Assembly (NCBI GenBank): GCA_907165135.1 | Contig: OU015568.1 | Span: forward strand, 13,888,001-13,952,000 | Length of the DNA stretch: 64,000 nt | From: Oikopleura dioica | Taxonomy: Eukaryota; Animalia; Chordata | Direction: 5' to 3' | Part shown: positions 4,449-44,353 of the stretch, piece after piece | How the letters are laid out: each line of letters opens with the position of its first letter | Position numbering within the stretch: position 1 is the first letter of the stretch | Notes under the pieces: model-generated | Database searches by the model: none | Seen by the model: only the letters and a program-made list of their open reading frames with translations | Told to the model about the DNA's origin: nothing | Translations under genes and position numbers: made by a program

Positions 4449-5829
4449 TTAACGCTTGAGCTTCTTGGCTGTGTTGCCTTTTTGCTTTCCAGCTTTTCGT
4501 TTCGCGTCTTTCTTTGGGGTCGGTTTGGAGGTGGAGACGACTTTGGAGATTTTGAAAAAGTCGTCCATTCGTCCCTGGTTGATTTTCCCTAAAGTTATCG
4601 AAAAGCTGAGTTTTTTCAAACGAAGATCTCTTTACCTTTGGACTTTTCAAGTCGTTTGAGACCGCTGCGAATTCGCTCTTCGTTGAATCCATTCTTTACG
4701 CACATGAATTCGATCATTCCTTCGATATCGGGCGATTTCCACTTCGGTGGGTCGATATTCTATCGCGTTTTATCATGTAAACTGTTGTTTGACAAATTCC
4801 ATACCTTGTACACTTCAGGCTCGACGAACAATCGCCTGGCATCCTTGTACTGCCAGTCGTCGACAACCTTGTACTTTTCCAAATCAATGTTTTGGAGGAT
4901 CGTCTCAATGTTGTCGTGTTTTTTGATGAGCTCGAACGCTTTCTTCGGACCAATGCCCTTGATGTTTGGCACGTAGTCGCAGCCCATGAGGATGCAGAGA
5001 TCGACGAATTGAGCGTGAGTTAGTCCAAGAACCGACATGATCTTTTCGTAGTGGAGCTCTTGAACAGGCAGCTTTCGAGATTCGGGCATCGTCAATCGTC
5101 GGAGAAGAACGGGGGTCTTGAAGCACAAGGAATCTTTTGAAAGGATTGAAGAGTGTTCAATAAGATTTGCTTAAAAATAATAGTTCTTTTTCAGCCCTTT
5201 CCCATATCCTCCGTGGCGATGGAATTGACAAGACCCTCGATGCACATTTGCGCACACTGCGCTTCCGCCTCACAGAGTGCCTCGACGTAAGGAACTCCCA
5301 AGAGTTCTAGCACCTTCTTCGCGTCCCTGACGTGATCTTTTGTAACTTTCACGAGTCGCCTCTCCTGCTTATCGATTTCTTGCGCAGTTCCAGTTTCTTT
5401 TGCCTCTTCGAGCTCGTCCTTTGCTTTTTCGCGGCCTTCCGCTCGTTTCTTCAATTCGTGCGACTTCATCTCAGGTGGCTTGCCGTCGAAAACGTACACT
5501 GGCTTGAGCCCGTTCTCGATCATCCTAACCGTTCTACGACAAGTTTAGGGATGATCTATTTCATCCAAAATTACCGGTAGAACATTCCGCTCAAATGAGA
5601 AGTAATCTCTCCAGCTTCATTCGTCAGTTGAGCACCGTCTTGACGCACCGCAATCAGAAATTGATACAAACTTAACGAAATGCATAGAAATCAGAAAATA
5701 AAAATTTCCGACGTACCACATAGAAGCATCGACGGCAATTTTCCTCCCGAAATAATTCTTCATTTCGCCTTCTTTTACGCAGGAGGGAGCCTCATCGCCG
5801 ATCAGTTTCATCAACCCTTTTATTCCCAT
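4449..5829 (-). CDS. FEN1: Flap endonuclease 1 (multi-exon)
   Basis: [20 protein letters not shown]; VFDGKPP; EAEAQCA; [17 protein letters not shown]; C-terminal PIP box QGRMDDFF and basic tail. Confidence 0.97.
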
Positions 5830-20525: not shown

Positions 20526-22816
20526 AGATGATAATAAAACCAGACACGGAAACCATAAGAGTTCTAAATTAACCAATTAATAATCATAATTTTTGATTGT
20601 AAATTAATAAGTTCTTGGTGTCTGGAATCCAGTGACACTTCATCTATGACAATGTCATAATGACATGTATAAACACCAAAGAAAGCTTAGTAAATCATCG
20701 AAACAAGGAAAAATAAAGCAGGGAAAACATTTTTACAAAAACAAAAAACGACATCATTTCATTTGGACAGTTCTTGTTCTGATGAAATGTATAAACAAGT
20801 TCGATCATAAGTACAATTAAATTTCTGATACCAAATACAGTAAGTATCTGGGTCACAGCGTGTTATTGGATTAGTAATCAAGCTAAACACCAATTTACCT
20901 TCATTGTTACTATGCGCTAAAAAGGAATAAATGTTAGGGTCAATCATATCAGGTTGTTAGAACAATGAAGACATTAAAAAATTTCCATCAAGCTTCAAGC
21001 TTTTTGTTTCACCTCGACGGAAATCACTTACTCTGGCAGTTGATCATTGGGAAATCATGGTCCACTTTTTAGGCTGATCATTTTTTTGAGGTAATGCCCT
21101 TTATAAACGGAGTGTCGGAAATATATATTCATAACTAAGTTAAGCCTTTGCCTGTTAAACTTTCAAATGAGACCTGTTCTTCATCATCGCTTATTGTCAT
21201 CATACACATAACCTGTTGCGGATACTCGATGTTTTCATGATGCAGAAGCTCTGTGGTTTCATATTCCAGATCCTCTTGGTCGTAAGAACATCCAAGCTAC
21301 ACCTGGGTTGAGTTTAGACAATTGCAGAATTTCCACAAAAGAAAAGTGGAGCTCGGGGCGCCGGACTTAGTCAACCACTTAGTAAACTATTTGAATAAGC
21401 ATAAACAGATGAGTGAAGGAAATTTGTTTCCACAACAAACAAGTTACTCTCTCAACCCTGGTCCTTGTAGGTCCCTTTGGGGCATTGGTAGACAAGGTCT
21501 GTCACATAGTCTCTACCCGTCGAATTCGTCTCTACTTCATCTCGCACTGTTACCACCATCGCCTGTTGCGCGGTTGAGAGTTCTCATGTGCCTCTCACAA
21601 TCATTTCCGGTCCATGGAAATAATTGGATCGCCTCCCTTATCTTGCCAACAGTTTTCAATACTCAACTCAGTCCAAATAAAGTAAAGCTTTGATGCACAT
21701 TAATTTTTATCTTTCTTCCAACATTCGTTAATTCAGAAGTGCGAAGAAATGCGTATCCAACTCATTCAGCAGACTTCTTATTAAATTTATAAAGAAAATA
21801 CTCATTAGCGACATGGAATATTCAAAGATTAACAGATCAATATTCTGAGGCTAAATTATTCAGCTATATTTCAAGTAAAAATGGTTAGTTTTGCAATCGA
21901 TTAGCTTGTAAAACTGAATTTACGCTTCCATATTTACACTCAGTACAAGTCTATTTTTGTTAACGACGAATTTATTGAGCCTGAATCAAATTTGTAAGCT
22001 TATTGAAAGGAAATTACGCTGTTTTTTAACTTAATAATTTTAAAATTATAATTGGTTTATTGAAAACATCCCTATTTTGAAGGAAAATGAACCTTCTTTC
22101 TCGAAATCTTCGATAAATTCTTCCAAATTGCTTCTTTTTTAAAATCTCTCCGTAGAAAAATCTTCGAAAATCTCTATTTGTCACAAAAGTATGAAAAAAT
22201 TAACAGATTTAGTTGTGTTTATGGGATTTTCTGCATGGAGCACCGGGATCGTTTTTCTCCGCGGCCTGTTCTTTTGGGAAACGCAGCTCGGACGGGCCCA
22301 ATCAAAAGGCGTTGAGCGCCAGAGAGCTCAGCCGCGATTGAGCCGAAGGACACATCAGAGATCCGAGTTCTACGGATATTCAGGACTTCTGAAGGACTAC
22401 TGTCCACAGATTCTATCGGATACTGACGTCTTATTTTCAATCAAATAATTAACGGTTGTTGGATGTCAAATATTTTCTAATGAATACAAATTTAAATTGC
22501 AATTAAAAGTTCTATCCAGCAAACAGACTAACTAAACCACATCAATCATGTGAAATCGTCAATGAAACTTCTTTGTACCCGCCAGTTAAACAACTAATTT
22601 GATACCCTTTTAAAAATAATCAATAGATGGATGCTGCATCCAGGATGCACGAAATAAGCACGATCTGGTTAGTTAGCAACAAACATGCGGTTAAATTTAA
22701 CCGCGGTCGAAGTACATGAAAATCCTGCCTTCAAGGGACATCTTAGAAGGAATCCTTCTAAAAATCCACGTGTTCCCAGAAGTCTTCAATTAACAGTTTT
22801 CATCTCAAAATATAAT

Positions 22817-23231
22817 TGTAGTGGATTAATATATGCAAGTATGACTTCTGCAACAAAGTTGATTTCCGCCGCGCGCAATGGCCATAAAGCCATTAGCGCG
22901 CGCATTTCAAAACCACTACCACCCTCTGAATCCGCCACCACCTTCTGTCGTAAAGCGCACTCACCCGATTCCACCGCCACCCTCGGCTCGTGAGGCCCGA
23001 TGAAAACTCGCCACCCGGAACGAAATGCTATAAAAAGAAGCACCCTTTTTACTCTGTGCCAGTCTGTACCAATCTGCGCCAACATCTATACCACAAATTT
23101 CTGAAAAACGAATACTGCTCCTACTGACTGTTCTGTCAGTACAATAAACGCTCCGTAGTTGTTTTCAACTACCCCCACAACAAAACGCCTTAGTCTCCAA
23201 CATTTGTTATTGCATATATAAAAGCACTACA
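22817..23231 (+). repeat. 5' LTR
   Basis: TG...CA ends with a 7-bp terminal inverted repeat; TATAAAA near 23028; AATAAA at 23143-23148; matches 30683-31097 by eye. Confidence 0.97.
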
Positions 23232-23236
23232 AATTT

Positions 23237-23250
23237 TGGTGACTGAAGAA
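23237..23250 (+). promoter_or_regulatory. Primer-binding site (TGGTGAC..., possibly tRNA-Trp)
   Basis: TGG begins 5 nt after the LTR. TGGTGAC is complementary to the usual tRNA-Trp 3' end, but the match is short. Confidence 0.6.
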
Positions 23251-23562
23251 CGGCGAGGAACTTTAAGACTAGAGTCCATCGCTTAAAGTTCGAAGACCCC
23301 CGAAGCCTACTTTACCGACAACGATACGAAAAGAGCTGCTGCCTACGATCTCCGAAAAAAAGAAAACTTCAACAAAGGTTAGTACCCGGTTCAAAGGTCC
23401 CTAGATATTTCTCAAAAGTCCAGAGCGAGTCCCACTGAGCGGAGTGTTATCCTTAAGAGGCACCACCGACAGGCAAGCTTTTAGGACTTATAGGATCGGA
23501 CCTTTAAGAAAAAGGCACCAAATCAACAGCTCTCACCAAATTTTCGCTCATCTCTTTGAAAA

Positions 23563-24906
23563 CATGTCCGAAATGTATTTCAAGCACGTACAAGACCTTA
23601 ACAAAGGGGAACTACTAGTTATTTACGATAACCTCGAGGGAAAAACTTATCCACCGAAAATCCCCATAAGCGATAAAGAATCCATTTGCCACAATATTCT
23701 AGCCTTGGATAGAGATTTTTTCGATAAAAATCGAAAATATGTTTTTGAAAAAAGTACTGATGGACAATTCGTTCGATATTTTCCCCAGTACCAGGAGGAC
23801 TGCCAAAACCAAAAATTCGCGCAAGCTCGTCATAAAATTGACACAGAAAAGATTTTGGCGTCCCGAAATGTAGAAAATCTAGATGCTTTGATCACATCGC
23901 TCAAAATAGAAACTGAATCTGTTTCAGGCTCAGAGCTTTCAAATGATTCGTCAGTTGATTCAGCTGATGAAACGGTCATTCAAGACGGCCAGGAAGCTCT
24001 GAAGCCACGAAAACAAAAGGTGAAAACTGAAAAGCCGGAATCAAAAGATGTGCCGCGTTTCAAGAAAGAATCGAAATCGACACACATTCCAAAGCAACAG
24101 TTTGAACCAAAAATTTCGCGTTCTTCAAATCTAAAAGTAAAACCCCCACGTTATGACGCATCGATCCCGATCCCAGCTTGGCTTAAAATCTTGAAATCTA
24201 TGCACGATGTTCAAATCTTTCTAGCAGCGAAATTATAACCGTTGCACTAACATCGTTGCTCAATGAGTCCGAAGGATCTCATATAATTCAATCTCTGGAG
24301 TCGGAAGACATGCAAGACTGGGGCAGATTTAAAGATCGATTAACAAGTATGCTTGGGAAGGATAAAGAGTTCTTTAAACATCAATTTAAAGATTACCAAA
24401 GAGGTAGTGACAGTTTCGGACTAGCCCTCTCAAAGATCACATCATACTATAAACAGGGCTACGACCTCACTCACCTCAATGAAAATGATCGTTCTATAAT
24501 TATAGAAAGATTTTGCGAAAGCCAGTATCAAAAAATGAAAGAACTTTTGATGCGAGAAAAGTCACAGCTCACTCTTGAGAACATAGCGAAGCGAGCAGCG
24601 GAAATTGAGGCCTCCATTCCAAAAAAGGAGATCAACTTCAGTATCCAAGCTGAAGATGATGAAAAAGCTCGTTTCCGCGAACTCGTTAACAAGCTCTACC
24701 AAAAACTTGACTCTTCCCAAAGCACACACTCCAAATCGGGCAGCAAACGATCAAAAAGGTCGAAAATCGACATTGAAAAACTGAAAGGGCACTGTTTTTC
24801 GTACACAAAGTACAACAGATGTAAATATGCAGAAAACTGCAAATATATTCACTCTGACAAAGTTCCAGCAGATGTTTTGGACTACGTGAAAAACAGGAGT
24901 GACTAG
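23563..24906 (+). CDS. gag: Gag (one -1 frameshift near 24186), C-terminal CCCH finger
   Basis: Position before pol; capsid-like KPPRYD..PAWLK; CFSYTKYNRCKYAENCKYIH. Confidence 0.85.
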
Positions 24907-27900
24907 ACGGCCATAAACATGCCATTTTCAACTTTTGTCCAAACTATAGATCCGCTTCTTCAGACCTAAAATTCATCAACGTCATTGTCGAAAACTTTCA
25001 GTATCCAGCCTTGATCGATAGCGGCTGCACCCGAACTTGCATTAAAAACACCCTCCCTTTTGTTCGTAAAACAAGAAGTTCTGATGTTGAACTCTTGGTC
25101 GCAAATGATGAAATAGTGCGCCCAAGAGTAATGTGCTCACCGGTCAAAATCACGGTCCCTTCTGATAATGGTAAATTTACCCTAGACCCCTTACCTTTGG
25201 TTGTTTCGAACCTATCCTGTCCAATAATTCTAGGACTTGACGTCCTTAAAAACGTCTCATTTTGCGATGGTGAGAACTTTATCACCCTTGAAAAACATCG
25301 GGTAAAAACAATTAACCCATCAATCTTCTCGAAACAATCAACGAAAGTCTCAGCAATTATCGAGGTTGACCTAAACTCTGACCTTGAATCAAAATCGCTT
25401 GAGAACTTTCAATCAGTGCGTGAAGCACAAGCGAAAAGGGCGAATTTCGTACCTGAAATTGGGAATTACGGGGATGCTTCTCGAAATGAAAACTTTCACT
25501 CCAGGGTCTAACCGAAAAATATAAACTTGCGTTTTCTATGTCACCAGATGATCTTGGCAAGTTACATGGATTCAGATTCGCGCTTCCAACGCATGACGAA
25601 TCTCTGTCAAGCCACCAACCTCCGAGACCGATCCCAGTTCACTTGCGTGATCAAGTTGAAACCGAAATCAACAACTGGAAAAATCTTGGAATCATAGAAG
25701 AGACCCAGTCTGATTTTAACATCCCCCTCATTATTCTCAAAAGCCCGATAAAACAATTCGAATTTCGCTTGATGCTCGTGGGTTAAACAAGCTTCTAAAG
25801 CTAGATCGGTTCCCACTTCCCCACATGCTATCAGTAATGACTAGAATAGGTGAAAACTCACAAAAGGAGATGCATGTTACATAAGTAGTCTTGATTACCA
25901 CCGTGGCTACTGGCAAGTACAGTGCGCTTCATCTGACTCGCATAAACTTGCCTTCAGCTTTGGTAACAAGCACTACCAAGCAAACAGAATGCTTTATGGA
26001 ACAGCAACAGCTCCGAGTGCGTTTTCAAGAATTATGTCAAAACTCATGAACCATCCCTCGATCATCATTTATTTGTATGATTTGATTGTTATTGACAATT
26101 CTTTCGAAAATCACCTCAAAACACTCGAATTCATTTTCAAACAGTGCCAAAATCACGGACTTCTACTAAGCGCAAAAAGTGCAATTTATGCATGCGTGAA
26201 ACAGATTTCCTTGGGCACAGAATTTCGAGACAGGGAATCCAACCATCAGATAAGCACATTGCAGCAATACAGAAAATTACTGTACCAACATCTAGAAAAG
26301 AACTTAAACGCTACTTGGGAATGGTCACTTTCAATGCAAAATATGTCAAAGACGCATCCATAATTCTTGCGCCTTTGTATGAGCTCACAAGCCTGAAAAA
26401 GAATTCAACTGGACGAGTAAACACCAGCAGGCTTTCGAAAACATGAATCAAAAGCTCAAAGAAAACCAACACTTGGCCATTTTAAACTCGGCGCGAAGCT
26501 TCTTCTCGTGACCGACAGCTCAGGGCGAAGTGTTGGCGGGACCCTCTACCAATATCAAAATGAAAAACTAGTTGTTATTGGTTATTTTTCAAAAGCTCTC
26601 ACGGGTCCTGATCTGAAAAGAAGCATGCGGGTAAAGGAACTCTTTGCGTTAACTTGGGGAATCAAATATTTCGAGTTTTACCTCCTCAATACAGAGTTCG
26701 ATTGTGTTGTAGACCACAAAAGCCTGCTCTTTCTTTTCAAGGAACAACAACAGTCCAATTTGGATATCAAACTCACCAATATCCACTGCTATCTCCAGCA
26801 GTTTGATTTCACAATCATCCACAAGCCGGAAACAGCCCGATCATGGCAAGTGCGGATTACTTTTCTCGCCTTCCAAGATCAAAAAGCTCCGACTTAGAGG
26901 ACGATTCGGTGAACTTTGAGCTCCTTCCAGAACGCGTCTGTATGTTCCATCTCATCAAAAATGATGAAAATGAGGTTATTTTCTCTTTCGGTTCCGAGAA
27001 AATAACAAAAACAAAAATGAGGGAGTTGCAAAAAGAGTGCAACCTCACCAAAAATAAGCTCATTAAAGTGGAGAAATACAAAAAATCAAGATTCTCGCTC
27101 AAAGACGGAATCTTGTTCTCCAAAAATAAACTTGTTATCCCAGACCAACTTGCAAATGAATTCATACAGTACCTGCACTGTATAACGGGACATGCTGGTG
27201 CGCAGCAATTAAACCAAATGTGCCAAAAATTTTTCATAAGTAATATCCAAATGAAACTTAGAGCCGTAACGAGCTCTTGCCCCACTTGCATTCAATTTAA
27301 ACCGATCAAAAAGCTCAAACCATCAATGATCGAGCGACGCAACTTCGAGTCAGTTCCTTTTGAGAAAACTTTTCTCGACCTTGTCGACTATGGAAGAGTT
27401 GACTCATCAAACAAAAGGTATCTGCTGACTTGTTGCGACTCGCTTACCGGGTTTCTAGACGGTTTACCATTGGGAACAAAAAGTGACAAAACTGTCGCGC
27501 AAGCGATCCTCACTCTTGTTCTCAGACACGGGATCACCGAGGTTGTTGTTACTGACAACGGGCGTGAATTTGGACCGCTTTGCAAGCAAATTTTCGAGCG
27601 ATTCCAAATCCGCCACGTTACAACAACTGCATACCGATCCTGTTCAAATGGGAAAGTTGAAAGAATCCATCGCGAAATTCACATTCAACTCAAACAATTG
27701 AATGCAAATGATCGCAATTGGTCACAAAAATGGGAGCAAGCTAAATACTATCTCAATAACCTACCAAAAGCAACACTAGACGGGCTCTCAAGTAATGAAG
27801 CTCTCTACGGTAGGCCTTTTCATGTTCCTTACAAAATTGGAACATCAAATGATGGTGCCAAAGAACCATTTATCAAAGCCCTCAATGGTTATATTAAACA

Positions 27901-28408
27901 ACTGCACCCTGCGATCCAAGCGTTCCAGGTACAGAGGTACCAAAAACTCCTCCGAAAAGATAAAAATAATTGCCCAGTTCTTGAACTTGGTACCCAAGTG
28001 CTAGTCTGGAAACCAAATCTTTTTGACGGAAAATTAGGTACAAACTGGAGCGGCCCATTTTATGTTCATAAAAGAATCTCAAAAGATTCTTACATTCTAA
28101 AATGTTCACTCACACAACGTGAGTATCGCCGACACATAAGCCTGATCCGACCTCTAAAAATAAGACCGGCGACTCAACAAAATTCGTCTCGATCAATGAC
28201 GAAAACGATCAATCATCCATTCGCGATAAAAACTCAATTGTGTCTCAAAAGAAATCAAGGAAGACACCCAAATAAAAATTTCCCGCTCAACTGCGTCAAA
28301 AAGAATGCAGAAACTAAAGAGGATCCGAAAAATGAAAATAATGATCCTGTTGCGCCCCTCAAAAATGATCCTGCAAATTGGTCAAAAAGATTACGACCCC
28401 GAAAATAA
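24903..28408 (+). CDS. pol: Pol polyprotein (PR-RT-RNase H-IN), broken by several single-base frameshifts
   Basis: ALIDSGC and IILGLDVL protease; LDARGLN, SLDYHRGYWQ, MLYGTATAPSAF, YLYD and FLGH in RT; TDSS, KELFAL, VDHKSL and ADYFSR in RNase H; HHCC, D-D-E (FLDLVD, TDNGREF, SNGKVERIH) and WSGPF in integrase. Confidence 0.93.
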
Positions 28409-28414
28409 GTTCCT

Positions 28415-28438
28415 AAAAGAGGAGGGGAAGGGGAGAGA
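28415..28438 (+). promoter_or_regulatory. Internal (second) polypurine tract
   Basis: 24-nt pure purine run AAAAGAGGAGGGGAAGGGGAGAGA, 6 nt after the integrase stop and followed by TG. Confidence 0.7.
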
Positions 28439-29068
28439 TGCATTGTTGGTTTGCACTCTCATGAGCCCACTGTGAAGAGAGAGCTTGTTCTTGCTCTAAG
28501 TTTACATTTTTGAAAATCTAAATTTAGCGCCATCTCAAAAGCACTAAAACTATTTTCAAAAATAGCGTGGAATGAGATATCTTGCTCTTGATATGTCTAC
28601 GCACCCGTTCCATTCTAGATCCCTGATCGATCTCTAGAATTCGTTTACTAAGGGGAGAAGTTATTACCGCCGGGACAACGATGCACTGAGTTAACCAACA
28701 CCGTACCCTAGGAATGTAAAACGATTATCTTCTTGGACCTTCGATAAGAATTTCGACTGTATGCTGGAAGTCCATCACCACCCGCTATAGCAACGTTCAA
28801 GTTCAAGTGCCATGAGCCCGCATCAGCTCATGAAAAATATCCGTGGTAAGTCAGCTTAGTCAGCAGAAGGAACCTGCTTATCAAACCCTGCCACAGCCCG
28901 CACAGCACAATTTGATGGCTACTGGACGCGTTGACCTCTACAACTGTTGGAGTCTGCTCCCAATGGGCCCAAACGGGTTCAGATTTACCTTCAGAAGCAA
29001 GTTACACGACTACAGTAGAAGCGAAAATTGCCCGCTTCGCATGCAGCTTAGTACTCGAACCCTGAGTG

Positions 29069-29461
29069 TCATCTGGTTCAGCTCGTGTGGAGAAGAACTG
29101 ATGAAAGAGACTCGAATGCTCACAAAAGAAGCAATAAAAACTCAAAAATTATGTACTCGACAGCTTATCATCAAACGAGTCTTCTCGTGTGGAGAAGAAT
29201 TGATGACTGCGATTCAAATGCTCACAGAAGATGCACCAAAATTATCATCAAACGAGTCTTCTCGTGTGGAGAAGAATTGATGACTACGATTCAAATGCTC
29301 ACAGAAGAAGCACCAAAAATTATCATCAAACGAGTCTTCTCGTGTGGAGAAGAATTGATGACTGCGATTCAAATGCTCACAGAAGAAGCATCTAAGCATC
29401 CGATTCTGCTCGTGTGGAGTAGAACTGGTGACAAAACTCAAATGCTCACAGAAGAAGCATC
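29069..29461 (+). repeat. Array of five ~77-78-nt repeats, each with two hairpins
   Basis: Core CTCGTGTGGAG(A/T)AGAA(C/T)TG(A/G)TGA...AATGCTCACA(G/A)AAGA(A/T)GCA occurs five times. Copies 2-4 are near-identical; copies 1 and 5 are diverged. Confidence 0.92.
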
Positions 29462-29547
29462 AAATATACACACAAACCAAATATCAACCGTGGGAAAATA
29501 ATTAGGCGCGGCACAGTTCGCCTTGGGGCGGCCAATAAGCACCGCGC

Positions 29548-30642
29548 ATGGCTTTGAAACGAGACTCCCTTGCCCAGTCTCAAAATACACAAGCCAAACG
29601 CAAGTTCAAGAAATTTAAAATGCCTTCCCAGGGAGCAACTACCAACCTTGACTGCCACTTCTTCCGAATGAATGACAGTGGCAAGGTAATGTTCCAACGG
29701 TATGTACTACCGTCAATCTTTGGAATTCACGTGCCAACAATCTTCCTTGACCCGAAATGGTCTCGACTACTCGATTTAACAGGAAGTATCCGGTATGCAA
29801 AAGAACGAGCCCTTGATCGACTGCAAAATCGGGCATTTCCTGAAGAAGCATTCGAAAGTATTATAGACTTTTGGAAAAACGAGTGCATGAAAGGGGAGTC
29901 CCTTCTTCGCTGGCAGACAAAGACGGCAGCTGTGGTTGAATTACTAAAGTCATTTAGGCCGATCCCGCAGTTTGCGAATGTGGTCATCAACAACTACGAA
30001 GAACACTTTTTAGCACGTCGAAAAGTCTGGCGGGAATTAGCTAACTATCCAAACTTTCAAATTGAACTTAAAGAAGCTAATTCCCTATTGGAGACTTTCC
30101 TGTCAGACTTACTCGCTAAGTTCGCCCTGCCTACCCAGTCCCAGAACCAACAAGATGAAGCCTTCTATAACGACTTAGATGACCAAGCGCAAGCAACGAT
30201 GACAACCGAGCGCAACCAGCCTGAGATGCCAGCTGCCCCACAGAATGATATGACTGAGCACCTGTCCAGACCCTTTGTGCCGATCTCGCCGACAACATCA
30301 GCCGCAACGTCTCTGTCGATGATGGAACATCCAAGAGCCCCGGATCCACAGCAACTGCCACCGACGACGTTCCCTACTAGCTCCAAAAAAGACATGGTCA
30401 CTCAGACTCAGTTGACAACTGATACCTCCCGGACGGCTAAGGCACCAGCCCAACCTCCAACGTCAGTTCCAGCGCTGAGTTATGGCCCGATGAGCTCCGC
30501 CCCGGACGTCCTTGGCAACCAAACACCTGGCGATCCGCCTCTTGACGACCCCTTTCCTTCAGCTCAATCTTCCAGCAACACTGACAGCGGCAACATGGTT
30601 GAAATGCTAGATGACAACTGGCGTGATCTGCTCTTTGGTTAA
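29548..30642 (+). CDS. Retrotransposon accessory ORF3, 364 aa, unknown function (not Env-like)
   Basis: Uninterrupted ATG-started ORF between the repeat array and the PPT; no signal peptide or clear TM segment. Confidence 0.8.
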   Translation: MALKRDSLAQSQNTQAKRKFKKFKMPSQGATTNLDCHFFRMNDSGKVMFQRYVLPSIFGIHVPTIFLDPKWSRLLDLTGSIRYAKERALDRLQNRAFPEEAFESIIDFWKNECMKGESLLRWQTKTAAVVELLKSFRPIPQFANVVINNYEEHFLARRKVWRELANYPNFQIELKEANSLLETFLSDLLAKFALPTQSQNQQDEAFYNDLDDQAQATMTTERNQPEMPAAPQNDMTEHLSRPFVPISPTTSAATSLSMMEHPRAPDPQQLPPTTFPTSSKKDMVTQTQLTTDTSRTAKAPAQPPTSVPALSYGPMSSAPDVLGNQTPGDPPLDDPFPSAQSSSNTDSGNMVEMLDDNWRDLLFG

Positions 30643-30668
30643 AATCAGGTGCAAAAGTCATAAATTCT

Positions 30669-30680
30669 AGGAGGGAGGGA
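30669..30680 (+). promoter_or_regulatory. Terminal polypurine tract
   Basis: AGGAGGGAGGGA, 2 nt before the 3' LTR. Confidence 0.9.
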
Positions 30681-30682
30681 TT

Positions 30683-31097
30683 TGTAGTGGATTAATATAT
30701 GCAAGTATGACTTCTGCAACAAAGTTGATTTCCGCCGCGCGCAATGGCCATAAAGCCATTAGCGCGCGCATTTCAAAACCACTACCACCCTCTGAATCCG
30801 CCACCACCTTCTGTCGTAAAGCGCACTCACCCGATTCCACCGCCACCCTCGGCTCGTGAGGCCCGATGAAAACTCGCCACCCGGAACGAAATGCTATAAA
30901 AAGAAGCACCCTTTTTACTCTGTGCCAGTCTGTACCAATCTGCGCCAACATCTATACCACAAATTTCTGAAAAACGAATACTGCTCCTACTGACTGTTCT
31001 GTCAGTACAATAAACGCTCCGTAGTTGTTTTCAACTACCCCCACAACAAAACGCCTTAGTCTCCAACATTTGTTATTGCATATATAAAAGCACTACA
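30683..31097 (+). repeat. 3' LTR
   Basis: Direct repeat of 22817-23231, followed by the TSD TAAT. Confidence 0.97.
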
Positions 31098-31326
31098 TAA
31101 TTCTAGTTATACACATGTTCCTGACCTTGAATGATCACGTGGCTAATTTATCTATTCTCAAGATGATTTGAAAAGGCTTAGCTCCTTATCAGAGTCATCT
31201 GACGCAAGGCGCTCTGTCCCAAATACAGACAGTACAAAGCAGCAACTCCCCGAGCATCAAAATATACTTTTCGAGTACTTTTTCAACCATTAGAAACTAA
31301 AGAGATTGCGCGTTTAAAGAAGTTCT

Positions 31327-34145
31327 ATGGATAACAGCGGCCTTCCAGAAGACATAGAGCGACTGCTGTCGTGTCCTGTCTGCTTGGATGTTTTTACTCA
31401 GCCAGTTGTGATTCTTCCTTGCCAGCACAACTTGTGCCGAAAGTGTGCGGAAGACTGCTACGACCGTCGAGGACGCGTGGTTGGTCTAAGGTAGACTTTT
31501 TCTCTGGGAAATTGATTTCATCGAGTTCAGCGGTGGAAAGTTTCAATGTCCAACATGCCGTTACGAAGTTATGGTCGATCGGCATGGTGTCTATTCTCTC
31601 CCGCGTAATTTACTTGTTGAAAACTTGATCGAAATGTACGCGGTATGTCGAACTAGAAGTGTTTTGCGATAAAATAAACACAGTTTTTGCTTAGACTCAA
31701 ATCGCCAAGAAACAACAAGCGCCGCCAGAACCGCCAAAGCCAGAGCCTGTGCGCGAGCCGACTCCTCCTCCTGCGAACAGAGTGCCCCTTTGTGAGGACC
31801 ACGAGGATGAACGAATCAACGTCTTTTGTTTGTCCTGTCAGAAACCGACATGTTCAATGTGCAAAGTCTTCGGAAAACATCAGAATTGCGATGTTATTCC
31901 AATCAAAAAGGCCTACGACGACCAAAAGAATGAACTTCGAGAACATATGGCTCGACTTGGCTCTGGAATCGAACAGATTCAGACGGTCCAAGCTGATACA
32001 GATCATTTGCGTCAGAGTGTGGAAGCTGCATCTAAACGAGCCAAGCAAGAAGTCAACCAAGCTTTCCAGCAACTTTGCGCTCTACTTGAGAAGCGGAAAA
32101 CTGCGATGATCGCGAGAATTCAGGTATAATACCAGTATATATTCAGGTATATAAAATATATTTTAATGAGTTTTTTATTATGAAAATGTTAATAGGAAGA
32201 CGTTAACGAGCGAATTGGAATTTTATCCGACATGTCGACGAGCTACAAAAAGCAACGGGACGAAATCCAGAAAGTCATGAATGATGGCTTAAAGTTGACC
32301 GAAGAGCAAGAGGCGACTGTCTTCTTGACAAAGTCTCGAACGATGATCAACAAAGTTGTGAACCAAGCTCGTGCGATGACTGAGATTCGTCCACCACAGT
32401 CAATCGTTCCAGAGCTGAAGCCATATAAAATCGATTTTGCTCGTTATCATCAGGTGCTAATAAAAATAAAACAATTTTAATGAGGATATGAAATTAAAGA
32501 TCTGCAGCCAAATCGACTTCGATAACGGGCAACGACCAGCCCAGCGCCCTGATTCCGCTCGATCTCGACTTCCATCAAATCACTCCAACAGTGACTTGAG
32601 CTGCATCCCTGGTCTTGCCCGACCACCACCGATTCCAGCGCCTACGGACGACGAGCTCTCAAATTTCCGTGCCATGGCCGACGCTTTAAAGCAGGCTGAA
32701 GACGGCTCTGGCGTATGATCCCTCACTCCGTACAGTAACATCCTACTCATCTTTACTAACCCTTTTTCATAACCCATCTCACAATGAACGGAATTTATTA
32801 TTTATTCTTACTAGAATTTAGAAACCAAACAATTCATCATCGAAATCTATTATTCAAAAGAAGATCCAATAGTCAAAAATCCAAGTGCAATTCAAAATAT
32901 CCCCATTGTCGCCCAAACAGAAGCTCAGAAGCTAGCCGAGGAGCAAGAGTCAGCGAAGTCGAATGAAGATGAGTACACTTACGAAGAAGTTGAAGTTGAG
33001 GAACTTGTCACTGACTCTGAAGGTCTTTATTGATTTTCAAAGAATATATTCAACTTGATTAGGTGAAGACAACGAAGAACCACCTAGTACAGCTCCGATA
33101 TCAGAGCATCCAATAACGGAAACAGACGATCAAATACCGGATTATGTTTTGGAATCGAGTCAAGCATCACGAATTTCTCTTCCTCGACCGCAGCAAAATG
33201 AAGATGAACGAGCATCTGTTGACTCTGGTGCAGTACAAGAAGCAATCGAAGCCTCCATTGAGGCCATTAATGAAGCTCGTAAGATAAGATTGCATTGATT
33301 TGAGTGTGATTTTAAATTAAGATCGGGATGGAAATCAAAGTTCCCGGGCTGATATGGCTGATGATGAAAATACTGAGTCAGATAGGTTGATAAACACTTA
33401 TTTTTACAGATCTGAATGAGAAAATTAAGCGCTTCGACAGAATACGAAGAAATAGAAATTGAAGTCACTGACTCAGAATACGAATCCGAATCGAATCCGG
33501 AATCTGAAGCTTCTGACTTTCAAAGCGCCAAGTCCAAGCTCGAAGAATCTCAAACTAATAATCTTGCCAAAGATTCAGAAGAAAATGACTCGGCGAATAA
33601 AGATGCCACCGACTCAACGTCAGATTCGAATTCAAAACCGTCGATTATTTACCACCCTGCTCAAAACGATGCTCGTAGTGGTATGTAAATAATTTCTTAT
33701 TAATTATTCTTAAATAACGTTTGAGAATCTTCTGGTGAATACGAAGAAATTGAGCTTGAAATCGAAGTAACCGATTCTGAAGCCTCTGATTCCGAAGACG
33801 CAGCTCAACTCGAAGACGAGGTTAAGTTTACATTCGCTTTTTCATTATTAAATCATAGAATAGGAATCGAACGATGTGAGTCTCGCTTCAGTTTCGCTCT
33901 GCCACGATACAAGCAAAGACGAAGCCAGCGACGAAGAGTTTCCACAATCAGCGCCAGCTCCAAAAGCCTCCGCCCCAATACCAATTTCAATGTCGAAAGC
34001 AAGCTCTACTTCAAATTTAGCCTCCTCATCTCCTCGTCTCCGCGGCTGGCTTTCCTCCGCTTCTCCCGGGCGATTAGACGGTGACATATACGAAAAGCGA
34101 GTTCACCCTGTCAAAACAAGAAAAAGAACCAACACTGGGCCTTAA
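31327..34145 (+). CDS. MuRF-type TRIM E3 ligase (TRIM54/55/63-like) with long acidic tail
   Basis: [55 protein letters not shown]; B-box [30 protein letters not shown]; coiled coil. The 3' acidic exons are less certain. Confidence 0.9.
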
Positions 34146-38819: not shown

Positions 38820-41800
38820 ATGAAGCTTTCAGTAGCTGTCCTTTCTGCTGTTTACGCTAAGAGAGAACCAGAGTAAGTTTATCAAGCTTGTTATAATTAA
38901 TCGATTATATTTCGTACTTTATTTTTTTTCAATATCAAGGACTAAGTCATAAGCATTTTTTTCATGACAAATTTCGAGTAAATACTAATGATAAATATAT
39001 CAAGAAATTATCTTAGTGCCGATCGTCGCCTCGAGAAAATCAGAGGAAAAGCGGCTGACTTCAAATCTTTCGCAGAAAACAATCATTTCGTAAGCGCAAA
39101 GCGTCTCGTCGCTCTCAACGATCGAGTTGATCGACTAATCGCCGACGTCGAATCCATCAATGTCTCTGCTTGCCCCGTTCCCGGAGTAGAAGAGGGCAAA
39201 TTCGCCGATGAAGAGGACTTCAGCGAGCTCTGTGATGCTTCGGGCAAGTTTCCGTCGATGGTCCGCTCCTATGCTCGCACGTTCGGCTGCCAAGATGGTT
39301 TCAAAAGGAAGAACTTCCTAAATAGACTCGTCAATCGAACTCACAAGTTGAAGAAAAAAACGAGAAAAGCTGCTAGATGCGAGGCTCCTGCCCCAGTCAC
39401 AACAGCAACTACCATCGTCACCGGCACTCCACACACCGAAGCTCCAATGCTTGAAATGTGCGACAAAGACCACCACGCTGTTTGCGAGCCACTGACCAAT
39501 TCCGAAATCTACTTCGAGAATCAGTGGACCTGCAGAAACTGCTTCCGAGTACGAGCGACTTACGGCCAAAACTCAGGCTTCAAATTCAACCCGGCAAAAG
39601 GCGATTTCGTAAGCGTTCGATTTACCGAACCGGTCATTTGGCAAACATTCAACCATCCAGTCGAAAAGGTGACCGAAGTTGGTGATGATAACACATGGAA
39701 GATCGATTTTAAACATGACGGAAATTTCATGAGCGGAATGATCTTCGAGGGAAATCTGCAAACCTCAGATGACGATCTTCACGTTGACGGAAACTGGATC
39801 ATTGAGGCGGCTGAGCAATGCAAATGCAAAGAAGGTCCCCCACCACCACCTCCATGCTCACTTTCAGATCCCTGCGAAGGCAAACCTGACTGTGAGACCT
39901 TCATCAACGCCTGCGCCGTTACTCCATCGCGAAATAACCGTATCGCCACGATAGACGGTTCGGCTGGATATGTCGTATCCGCGGAAGTCCAGTGTGGCGA
40001 AAGCTCTGGTGCTTGGGGCGGTATTGTCCATATCAACACAGGCACGAGCAGAGAAGTGTTTGGTGACAGATATTTCACGTTGTGGGCCCGACCTGATGGT
40101 GGAATTAAATTTAATGCTCCTCTGAAGGTATGTTTGTTGCTAATTTTTTCGTAAAATATTTTGCGTAAGAGTAAGATCAGTCCGCTAAGCAAATATTTAA
40201 GGATAACGGTGAGTTCCACGAGGTTGAATACAATCCGTCCTGCACTCCAGGAGAATGGAATACATACACTGTCGCTCAAGAATACGTCGACAACGTGCTC
40301 GAGCTTTCCATCTCCGTCAACGGAGAAGTTCTTGGAACACACGTTGTTCCAGCTGATAATGCTTTCGAAGGAGAACTTTTCGTCGAAGTCGCAGGCGATT
40401 ACCATCCTGCTGCTGATACTTTCAAAGTGCGAAATTTCTACCATCAGAAACTTCAAGAGCCAACTGGCCGCTGCGACGCACCAGTTGATCCATGCGATGG
40501 TGACGATTCCTGCGACGCACTCGTTGATAACTGCCCGATTAGACCCATGTGGTCTAATCTTCTCGGAGAAGTCGATGGTGATGCTGTTTACTCAGCATCC
40601 GTTGATGTTTTCTGCAAGAAAACTTCTGGACACGGCTGGCAGAACGTCGTACATATGACGCAGGGCACCAACCGGGATCAATTCGGTGATCGATATTTGA
40701 CGATTTGGCAACACGCTGATGGACGACTCAAACTCAACGGTCCACTCAAGGGCAACACTGAATTCCACGAAGTTGAATACTATGTCGACTGCGATGACAA
40801 CTCGTGGACAAACATTGCTATTGCTCAGACTCAACTTGAAGGCGGTCTTTTGGAATTGAGCATGTATCAGGACGGCGATCTTCTTGGCTCGCACCGTCTT
40901 CATTCCAGAGATGCATACTCTGGTCCAATCAAGGTGTATGCTTCGAATCCGTTCATGCCTCCCGCCGAATTTTTCAAGATTCGAAATTTCGTCCATCGAT
41001 CTGCTCCATATGAAGATAACTGCGTAGGCTCTGATCCATGCGACGGCATTGCTGATTGCGAAACTTTCGTTGATTCTTGCGCGATCGCTCCGTGGCGAGG
41101 AACCCGACTCGCGGACACCTCGGCCCACGAGCAGTACAAGATCTCCGCTGAAGTCTTCTGCACTGACCGAGTTGCATCTAATTGGGAAAACGTTCTCCAT
41201 GTTCACACTGGAACCAACCGAGAAAACTTCGGCGATCGATACTTCACCATTTGGAAGCAAGGAGGACATGCAGACAAAATTAGAATTGTCGCACCTGCCT
41301 TTGACAATCCGAATTATGAGCTCAATGCTTACGTTGACTGCGCTCCAGGATGGCACACATTCACTGTCCAGCAATCAAAACTCGACCAACACCAAATGAA
41401 TCTCGAGATCATTTTCGATGGAGAAGTTGTCGAATCTCAAGCTGTTCACAAAAATGATCTTTACGACGGTCAAATTTTCGTTGATGTCTCTAACGAATTT
41501 GCTTGGCCAGCTGCATACGATCATCTTGTTAGAAATTTCTACCATCAAGACATTGCTTGTGCAGATCCCTGCTTTGGAAAAGAGAATTGCGAGACGATTG
41601 TTAACGAATGCGAGATCTTCCCGGCCCGAAACCAGCAGCTTACAACAGTTGAAGCGTCTTTGAACTTTAAGACTTCAGCTGATGTTCTTTGCGACCATGA
41701 TGTAATTAGTGGCCAATACACAAATATTCTTCATATTACCGGCGGTGGTAATGTTGGCGAAGTTGGTGATCGAACATTTGGTATCTGGCGACGACCAAAC

Positions 41801-44353
41801 GAAAATAAACTGCACCTAACTGTCAATGATCCAGCTCATGGAAGTCATCAGAAGACAATTAATGTAGATTGCAGGCAAGGTGATTGGAATACATACTCAG
41901 TTGAAGTTCGTCAGCTCGAAATCAATCCATCAGTACTCAAGTACGTTCTCAGCATCGACGACGAACAGATTCTTGAAGGTTTTTATGAGAAATCTGCAAC
42001 CTTGTCAGAAGGTGCTCTTCAAGTTTGGGCTGCCGATAATTTCTATGATGCAGCTACATCTTATGCAGTTCGAAATTTCTACTACCAAACTTTTGAAGAA
42101 GTGCCCGATATTGCTTGCGATGATGCTACTGATCCTTGTGATGAACTTGAAAACTGTAACACTATCGTTGACAGCTGTGCGGCTTCTCCACTAAGAGACA
42201 CACAAGTTTCAACCGTCAGCTCTTCTCTCAATTACAAGTTCTCTGCTGATGTTCTCTGCAGTCATGCTATCTCTCCTGATGGTCAGTACAAGAATATTCT
42301 TCACGTAACAGGTGGTGGCAATGTTGGAGAATCCGGGGATCGAACTTTCGGTATTTGGCGAACACCAAACGAAAACAAACTTCACCTCACCGTCGACGAC
42401 CCAGGAAAAGGTAGCCATCAAAGTACTGTCAATGTCGACTGCACTGATGGAGAGTGGAACACATACTCCGTTGAAGTTCGTCAGCTCGAAATTGACCCGT
42501 CTCTCGTCCAATATGTTCTCGCTGTTGACGGCGTCCAAGTCGACCAAGGAATCTACACCGCCGATAACGTCTTTACAGAGGGTGATCTGGAGGTTTTCAT
42601 TTCTGATGATTTCTATGATTCCGCAACACTTTATTCTGTTCGAAATTTCTATCATCAGACTTTCGATGAGCTCGAACCTCTTCCCTGCGATTCTACTGAT
42701 CCCTGTGATCTGCTTGATAAGTGTACTACAATCGTCGATAGCTGCGCAGTTTCTCCAGTCCGCAATACTGAAAAAGCTACTTTGACCGCTTCCCTAAATT
42801 ACAGAATCTCAGCAGATGTTCTCTGCAATAGCGTCTCAGAACTTGATGGGCAGTATAAGAACATTCTTCACGTCACTGGCGGAGGAAATGTTGGGGCAGC
42901 TGGAGATAGAACATTCGGAATCTGGCGACGACCTAATGAGCACAAGCTTCACCTTACTGTCAATGATCCAAACTCTGGAGGTCACCAGAAAACGAAAAAT
43001 GTTAACTGCATCAACGGAGAGTGGAACACCTATTCAGTCGAGGTTCGACAGGTTGAGGATGCCCCAGAGACACTTCGATACGTCCTTAGCGTTGATGGTA
43101 ATAAAATAATGGATGGAACTTACGAATCAAGCGGTGCCCTGAGTGAAGGAAATCTTCAAGCTTTCGTTGCTGACGAGTGGTACGGCGCTGCTACTCCTTA
43201 CTCTGTCCGAAATTTCTACTACCAAGACCTTACCTGCCCTAGTCCATGCGATGGTAAAGCCAATTGCGAGACTTTTGTCAATGAATGCGAAGTCTTCCCT
43301 GCACGAAATCAGCAGTTAGCAACAGTTGAAGCCGCTTTGAATTTTAAAGCTTCCGCTGAAGTTTACTGTGATCATGCCATGCCTCTCGATGGTCGATGGA
43401 AAAATGTTCTCCGCATTGGTGGTGGTGGCGATCTCGGCCGAATCGGAGATCGAGTATTCGCTATCTGGCGAAGACCAAATCAGAATAGGCTTTACATCTC
43501 CATCAACGATCCTACAAGGAGTCACATGGAGCGAGTAACTACTGCCGAGTGCATTCAGGGTGAATGGAACACCTATTCTGTTGAAGTTCGCCAACTCGAA
43601 TCAAACCCATCCATTCTCAAATATGTTCTCACCTTTGATGATGAAGAGATCTTTGAAGGATCTTACGATAAATCAGGCACCTTGTCCGAGGGCGCTCTTC
43701 AAGTTTCGGCTTCAGATGATTTCTACGAGTCAGCTTCAACCTATGCCGTTCGAAATTTCTACTACCAAACTTTTGATGAAGTTGCGGAAGTCGCTTGCAC
43801 AGATGGCACTGATCCTTGCGATGGACTCGAGAATTGTAACACTTTCGTTGATAGCTGTGCAGTCCGCCCATCAAGAAATAACCAGGTTTCCGCTGTCGCC
43901 CCTGCTACCAGCTACAAACTATCTGCAGATGTTCTTTGCAATAAGGACCTCTCTACCGATGGTCAGTGGAGAAACATTCTTCGTGTTGGTAATGGCAGTG
44001 GCGATCTCGGCGAGTCTGGCAATCGAGTATTCGCACTTTGGCGACGACCAAATCAAAACAGGATTTACATCTCTGTTGACAACCCAACTACAAGCCACCA
44101 TGAACATGTAACTACGTTCGCCTGTACCGACGGAGAGTGGAACACGTATTCTGTCGAAGTCAATCAGCGCGAATCAGATCCATCCGTAACCGAGTATTCT
44201 GTAACAGTCGATGGCGAGGAAGTCATTGCTGGATCCTACAGCACTAGCGATTTTTTCACTGACAGCGATCTTCAAGTTTTCATCTCTGACGATTACTATG
44301 AACCAGCTTCTGTTTACTCTGTCCGAAACTTCTTCTACCAGACTTTTGAATAA
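38820..44353 (+). CDS. Large secreted protein (~1770 aa) with eight tandem ~180-aa Cys-linked beta-rich repeats; oikosin (house protein)-like
   Basis: Signal peptide MKLSVAVLSAVYA; introns at ~38873-39016 and ~40128-40201; repeats C..DPC....C.T.V..C...P.RN / GDR.F.IW / VRNFY.Q; no TM segment. Confidence 0.85.

Follow-up and report, generated by a model that had tools for sequence, protein, structure and literature searches.

A conserved non-Env accessory gene with a predicted Bcl-2-like fold, and a candidate RNA family, in a Ty3/gypsy retrotransposon of Oikopleura dioica

A complete long terminal repeat (LTR) retrotransposon lies at positions 22817 to 31097 of the stretch analyzed here (the window, 64,000 nucleotides [nt] of contig OU015568.1 from Oikopleura dioica). 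Between its pol gene and its 3′ LTR it carries a third ORF (open reading frame), ORF3, that belongs to a real gene family under purifying selection. Part of the ORF3 protein is predicted to form a Bcl-2-like helical bundle, and the non-coding DNA upstream holds an element, D2, that is likely a conserved structured RNA. The initial annotation of this module overlooked both and proposed that ORF3 may bind a row of hairpins in the manner of Tat/TAR or Rev/RRE. The reading that we prefer, at a probability slightly below even, is that of an accessory gene in the env slot, likely with its own internal promoter, whose Bcl-2-like product would blunt a host defense or silencing protein, with the upstream RNA domains working separately in cis. 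Coordinates are those of the window unless another sequence is named, and all stranded features of the element lie on the + strand.

ORF3 and its predicted fold

ORF3 spans 29548 to 30642 and encodes 364 amino acids (aa) from Met1, or 340 from Met25 (29620). The frame is intact, as first annotated, and the longest ATG-initiated ORF in 500 shuffles of the region reached 218 aa. When 1.84 billion representatives were scanned in full with HMMER, four homologues emerged (E values of 1e-23 to 2e-13), none of them named. Of 75 candidate stretches from a metagenome scan, 4 were confirmed (L001, L002, L003, and L004), all of them relatives of the element. In these, ORF3 begins about 1.05 kb past the pol stop and a purine tract directly follows that stop; the sequences of L001 and L003 extend as far as the 3′ polypurine tract (PPT) and the LTR. 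L002 and L003 belong to a single family, and L001 is close to L004; counted with the window, this gives three independent DNA lineages. Among five protein lineages the core identity of ORF3 is 21 to 46%, with open frames in all five and W, F, and R positions conserved down to 21% identity. Over 132 codons, L001 and L004 differ by 18 synonymous and 10 non-synonymous changes (dN/dS of 0.13; dS is saturated between the window and L001), and neutral evolution of ORF3, the outcome that would have counted against the first annotation, is already disfavored.

Other searches gave little. A word-index search found no ORF3 homologue, a profile of alignment A1 recovered P0002 as the sole sequence, Pfam, NCBIfam, and PDB sequence searches with ORF3 returned nothing credible, and a prokaryote scan produced two matches where about five were estimated by chance. 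Among the sequencing runs, one contig of X6 spans all of ORF3 without a gap, differing by 16 substitutions, and X1 contains a gap-free 89% variant; X7 leaves most of ORF3 uncovered, although its cover includes pol, the spacer, and the first part of the array, but such a hole proves nothing. Four RNA runs yielded 0, 0, 1, and 0 reads, flanking host DNA included, and hence are no gauge of expression.

The module does not diverge evenly. The array slot and ORF3 have 58% and 55% identity, while pol and D2 remain near 86 to 88%. Between L001 and L004, dS is 0.016 in the N-terminal part of integrase and 0.25 in ORF3, a contrast that suggests recombination between the pol and ORF3 genes. A contig of run X1 joins position 29424 to 30636, so that array-like DNA meets a different sequence in the ORF3 slot. 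Because of this joint and the dS contrast, ORF3 seems to have been exchanged between element backbones.

The protein is laid out as a helical domain (residues ~40 to 195), a low-complexity tail rich in Pro, Ser, Thr, and acidic residues, and a short acidic-hydrophobic motif at the end. The domain is predicted to be a Bcl-2-like all-helical bundle; its best structural match is full-length BAX with helix 9 included, and no DNA- or RNA-binding fold is among the top matches. The predicted last helix sits where helix 9 of BAX fills the BH3 groove. Bcl-2 family proteins are bundles packed around a hydrophobic central helix, helix 5, and their helix 1 carries the BH4 hydrophobic pattern. Helix 1 of ORF3, [VM]F[NQ][KR]Y[VCI]L, fits the pattern two hydrophobic-x-x-aromatic-hydrophobic, as any amphipathic helix might. 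The central helix begins with S/T-L/I-L/M-x-W in all five lineages, lacking the Gly of BH1. Cellular BAX and the viral Bcl-2-fold proteins BALF1/KsBcl-2 of herpesviruses, A179L of ASFV, and A49, A52, F1L, and M11L of poxviruses have the same helix order and central helix as those predicted for ORF3, and A49 likewise has no detectable sequence similarity to Bcl-2 (PMC4358236).

Several expected features do not accompany this fold prediction. The Z scores of the structural matches are middling, and the ORF3 sequence matches no known family. The BH1 motif of Bcl-2 proteins, NWGR (PMC8998228), with its conserved Gly, is not found in the ORF3 lineages, and the BH3 signature (a Leu, an Asp after four residues, and a Gly before it) is not conserved in helix 2 of alignment A1 as judged by eye. 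ORF3 also has no C-terminal membrane anchor of the Bcl-2 type. A single-sequence structure model was too poor (pLDDT of 41.6) to serve as a test of the fold; searching with it returned only short helix-pair matches and no Bcl-2 rows. The ESM Atlas values, 0.77 for the window protein and 0.88 for the MULE leads of P0005, both fell under the 0.9 line.

That ORF3 is not an Env, as first annotated, agrees with its composition. Tor Env proteins of Oikopleura are furin-cleaved glycoproteins with a C-terminal transmembrane (TM) segment, seven conserved cysteines, and F-X-G and N-[L/V]-G motifs. In contrast, ORF3 has 0 to 3 cysteines in the five lineages and no TM helix (maximum 19-residue hydropathy of 1.07 to 1.57); the central helix has a mean hydropathy of 0.63, and the helix at 170 to 192 is amphipathic, with a mean of 0.36. 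The basic patch reported earlier exists (KRKFKKFK, residues 17 to 24), but it precedes Met25, the likely start. Met25 lies in an A-rich start context, as do the starts in the relatives, and matches the position where the first Met stands in two of the four homologue types, which lack the patch, so the patch may be left untranslated; the other two types have short basic N termini. The Tat/Rev-like character suggested for the protein thus finds a Lys-rich patch outside the conserved domain rather than an arginine-rich motif.

The non-coding region between pol and ORF3

The purine tract described initially as a second PPT was recovered at 28415 to 28438. It measures 24 nt, directly follows the pol/integrase stop at 28408, and is present in all relatives. 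It resembles the element's own 3′ PPT, both in the window (30669 to 30680) and in L001 (3490 to 3511 versus 5262 to 5273). It might serve as an additional primer for the plus strand, or it might be the PPT of a two-gene ancestor to which the module was added afterwards. The following spacer, given earlier as about 630 nt, measures 624 nt (28439 to 29062). Treating it as mere spacer was mistaken, since it is the best-conserved non-coding part of the element. Its conserved blocks contain indels that break any frame and are therefore non-coding.

Two domains can be distinguished in it. D1 (28434 to 28709; ~280 to 340 nt among the elements) has a variable interior and conserved complementary ends that would form a long closing helix, supported mostly by invariant complementary pairs with little covariation. 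D2 (28756 to 29048) is a conserved non-coding element of ~300 nt predicted to fold into several helices. Aligned globally, it shares 56 to 57% identity with the relatives, where the shuffled control gave 43% and at most 47.5%, and L001 and L002 are 86% identical. In a hand-chosen structure of 50 pairs, 97.5% were paired, compared to at most 38.5% in slid controls. Eight pairs changed on both sides, against a shuffled mean of 2.2 (1 of 500 shuffles as high), and, read in register, a further hairpin whose 7-nt loop is invariant adds another double change. The ratio of G-U to A-C cells, 9 to 1, favors action as a sense-strand RNA. Against these figures it must be set that the structure was derived from the same sequences used to score it, from three lineages, that free-energy z-scores were not significant, and that, once the window was excluded from the prediction, the resulting structure retained 11 of 19 double and 6 of 16 single changes (four pairs being misregistered by one column). 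On balance D2 is likely a conserved structured RNA.

No Rfam 15 family reached its gathering score for the spacer RNA, and the only rows were weak (E values of 1.6 to 9.5). D2 contains a helix of 7 bp that is invariant and has a bulged U after a purine run (28770 to 28777 paired with 28914 to 28920), which, as we take it, recalls the P4 helix of RNase P. Identification of D2 as RNase P P4, group II intron domain V, twister, or a dicistrovirus internal ribosome entry site was considered and dropped, as the other required helices were missing and Rfam gave no match.

Downstream lies the array of CTC-N(5-7)-GAG inverted repeats (29054 to 29466), made of five units of 70 to 102 nt plus one hairpin upstream. 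The five copies reported initially are there (29063 to 29466; period of 77 to 78, except that the first gap measures 102 and the last 70), each of them a hairpin, and their core CTCGTGTGGAG occurs five times, always inside the array, against 0.52 expected in the window. As structures they surpass shuffled sequence only modestly (z of −1.1 to −2.0 for single copies, −1.6 for the array taken together), with one compensatory pair between copies. The 78-bp unit is not present in the relatives, which have in the same slot three to four short CTC-GAG hairpins with other loops. Co-occurrence of ORF3 with a hairpin row, a check proposed with the initial annotation, thus holds in all three DNA lineages, which have D1 and D2 as well (3 to 5 stems of at least 4 bp versus 0.2 to 1.0 in shuffles), but period, spacing, and loop sequences are not kept; the P values of the CTC-GAG enrichment are optimistic, as the motif was picked after seeing the data and the copies are not independent.

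The stretch before ORF3 (29489 to 29547), formerly called a GC-clamped leader, was located where it had been placed, but it is no more stable than shuffles (z of +0.35) and instead holds a GC box (29526) and a CCAAT box (29532) detected by motif scan. The relatives have a cAMP response element (CRE; TGACGTCA/TGACGTC) at an equal distance. The boxes lie downstream of the hairpin row, 75 to 140 nt ahead of the ORF3 start, and their arrangement suggests an internal promoter. Between the pol stop and ORF3 there are 19 to 23 ATGs, which put ORF3 out of reach of simple scanning on the genomic RNA.

Possible functions and comparison with known systems

Of the described elements, the Tor elements of Oikopleura come closest, above all Tor4b (Henriet et al. 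2015, PMC4402516), which resembles ours in its gag-pol, near-identical LTRs, 4-bp target-site duplication (TSD), non-coding gap after pol, and third ORF ahead of the 3′ LTR. Unlike ORF3, the third ORF there encodes a TM glycoprotein that has seven cysteines and a fusion tripeptide. The third gene of Tor3b and Tor4b is transcribed from an internal promoter, in Tor4b located within the post-pol gap (PMC4402516). By likeness to these env genes, ORF3 could be expressed from a short mRNA of its own, whose putative control region would comprise the CTC-GAG array together with the GC/CCAAT/CRE boxes. The protein might then act as a protein-binding adaptor, like those poxviral Bcl-2-fold proteins of the A49 type that no longer bind BH3 peptides, with the acidic tail as a possible effector arm, and would likely bind and blunt a host defense or silencing protein. 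D1 and D2 may serve export, stability, or packaging of the unspliced RNA through host factors or Gag, as in MusD. D2 changes at the rate of pol, whereas the array and ORF3 change much faster and ORF3 seems to be swapped; this would fit D1 and D2 acting on the genomic RNA and ORF3 on a host protein.

The main rival, the idea of the initial annotation, is trans-activation through the array. ORF3 would bind the CTC-GAG repeats, either as inverted repeats in DNA (in the manner of foamy-virus Tas or the HTLV Tax repeats) or as nascent hairpins (Tat/TAR-like), and its acidic tail would recruit the transcription machinery. The constant slot of the hairpin row in the three lineages, the joint divergence of array slot and ORF3 while pol and D2 stay conserved, the acidic Pro/Ser-rich tails with acidic-hydrophobic ends in ORF3 of the window, P0001, and P0002, the short basic N termini of three of five lineages, and a conserved RR ahead of helix 7 speak for it. 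Yet binding of the array is not supported so far: the best structural match is a protein-interaction fold, with no nucleic-acid-binding match, the basic patch is not in P0001 and P0002 as called and lies upstream of the likely start, loops and spacing vary, the tail of P0003 has only ~50 residues, and the X1 contig joins array-like DNA to another ORF3-slot sequence. We consider this explanation unlikely, if still one to be reckoned with. Clearly less probable is that ORF3 is a Rev- or CERV-like export factor that targets D1/D2 and not the array. The long terminal helix closing D1 recalls stem I of the HIV Rev response element (RRE), the multi-helix D2 would be missing from a subgenomic ORF3 mRNA, and a gypsy-class precedent exists in CERV of Cer1 (PMC10309623); however, D2 is 86% identical where the ORF3 core drops to 42% aa identity, with no co-variation, and the conserved domain has no arginine-rich motif.

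We give similarly little credence to a membrane-active, BAX-like ORF3 that stands in for Env in cell-to-cell spread, or that kills cells or works as an addiction factor. Full-length BAX is the best match, ORF3 occupies the env slot, and env-less elements that spread between cells have been reported (bioRxiv 10.1101/2025.03.14.642691), but the hydropathy values given above leave no hydrophobic segment in any lineage, and the long acidic tail and missing BH3 signature do not fit. Improbable to about the same degree is that the Bcl-2 likeness is that of a generic helical bundle, with ORF3 a passenger or decaying captured gene and the repeats neutral tandem expansions. The middling Z scores and the missing family match would agree with this, and post-pol tandem arrays are common in some gypsy lineages, including about half of Retand elements (PMC11963269). 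Nevertheless, the low dN/dS, the frames open down to 21% identity with their conserved W, F, and R positions, and the fixed position of ORF3 in the element contradict it.

Returning to the accessory gene with a host target, its parts have precedents elsewhere. Viral Bcl-2-fold proteins have so far been described from large DNA viruses, unlike ORF3, which is carried by a retroelement, lacks NWGR, BH3, and TM anchor, and has a long acidic tail. As predicted, D1 and D2 would resemble the MusD transport element and the HIV RRE (PMC5767303) in being multi-helix regions of a few hundred nucleotides with long-range pairing in an LTR element; they differ in having no sequence or Rfam similarity to them and in the hairpin row and accessory gene that come after them. 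Cer1 of Caenorhabditis elegans, also gypsy-class, has the non-Env accessory protein CERV, needed for RNA export but made from a spliced mRNA and with G-protein-like and Cys-loop domains that have no counterpart in ORF3 (PMC10309623). Plant Retand elements likewise have a long stretch from pol to the 3′ LTR, with arrays in tandem and an additional ORF for which a regulatory role has been proposed; that ORF, however, is antisense and encodes TRP28, unrelated to the sense ORF3 (PMC11963269). Extra ORFs and arrays after pol, and a Rev-like protein in a gypsy-class element, were thus already known from these two sources. The main text of PMC4402516 describes no non-Env third ORF or structured RNA in Tor elements; within a partial coverage of the literature we found neither a non-Env third ORF described for Tor nor a retroelement described as encoding a Bcl-2-fold protein, and the accessible parts of PMC13524379 and PMC2774666 added nothing on either. 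The ORF3 protein family is therefore a candidate novelty, together with a candidate RNA family.

O. dioica, the host, has been reported to have lost the whole Bcl-2 family. It is conceivable, at a probability that we also place just short of one half, that a retrotransposon clade has kept a true Bcl-2 family gene, perhaps the last in this lineage, as a fast-swapping accessory with an internal promoter beside an undescribed RNA family of ~300 nt. If so, then within the reach of our searches no Bcl-2-fold protein would have been reported from a reverse-transcribing element before ORF3, and simple retroelements too could capture and retool this scaffold. Its presence in a lineage reported to lack Bcl-2 genes would raise the question of its target, and of whether the element preserves a lost host gene. 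The clade would allow a non-Env accessory system to be tested in the embryo of a tractable chordate, and would offer a candidate new family of cis-acting RNA.

Organization of the element and its surroundings

The two LTRs (22817 to 23231 and 30683 to 31097) are 415 bp long and identical at all 415 positions, with TG...CA ends and 22-nt imperfect terminal inverted repeats, and are flanked by the 4-bp TSD TAAT (22813 to 22816 and 31098 to 31101). A primer-binding site, TGGTGACTGAA (23237 to 23247), is common to L002. gag (23564 to 24906), in two frames in the window, ends in a CCCH finger, and pol (24903 to 28408), in several frames, has protease, reverse transcriptase, RNase H, and integrase in gypsy order, both by Pfam. 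With the PPT, these features make it a Ty3/gypsy element. Near the frame breaks in gag and pol, contigs from four short-read DNA runs differ in length from the window (among the matches listed, 12 of 90); the breaks are thus probably assembly errors and the family probably young and intact. At the gag-pol junction (24897 to 24909; L002 2009 to 2015) both elements have TGA-CTAG, in frame with pol in L002, presumably a motif of the read-through type, so that stop-codon read-through is likely. A stop so far upstream could need shielding from decay, which is one possible task for D1/D2.

The nearest named relatives of pol are the O. dioica proteins CBY42119.1 and CBY08090.1, with only 24 to 31% identity outside the clade. 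The integrase core is 80% identical to that of CBY42119.1, the two grouping together in a quick tree (38 rows, none left out), and pol clusters with the gypsy proteins of O. dioica and separately from other gypsy lineages, which suggests a Tor-type element. Viral contigs searched with ORF3, integrase, and two spacer motifs gave no match. A sister family (P0077, P0084, and P0085) has ORFs of 1376 to 1618 aa, probably gag-pol with no stop between, in which no ORF3-like domain was found.

Immediately downstream of the element (31100 to 32130) lies a host gene of the RING/B-box/coiled-coil type (TRIM, MuRF-like; B-box by Pfam) with very short introns. Farther on, a single ORF of 1268 aa (40547 to 44353) consists of repeated ~180-aa units with cysteines, possibly secreted house proteins, and is preceded by a related ORF of 388 aa (38988 to 40154).
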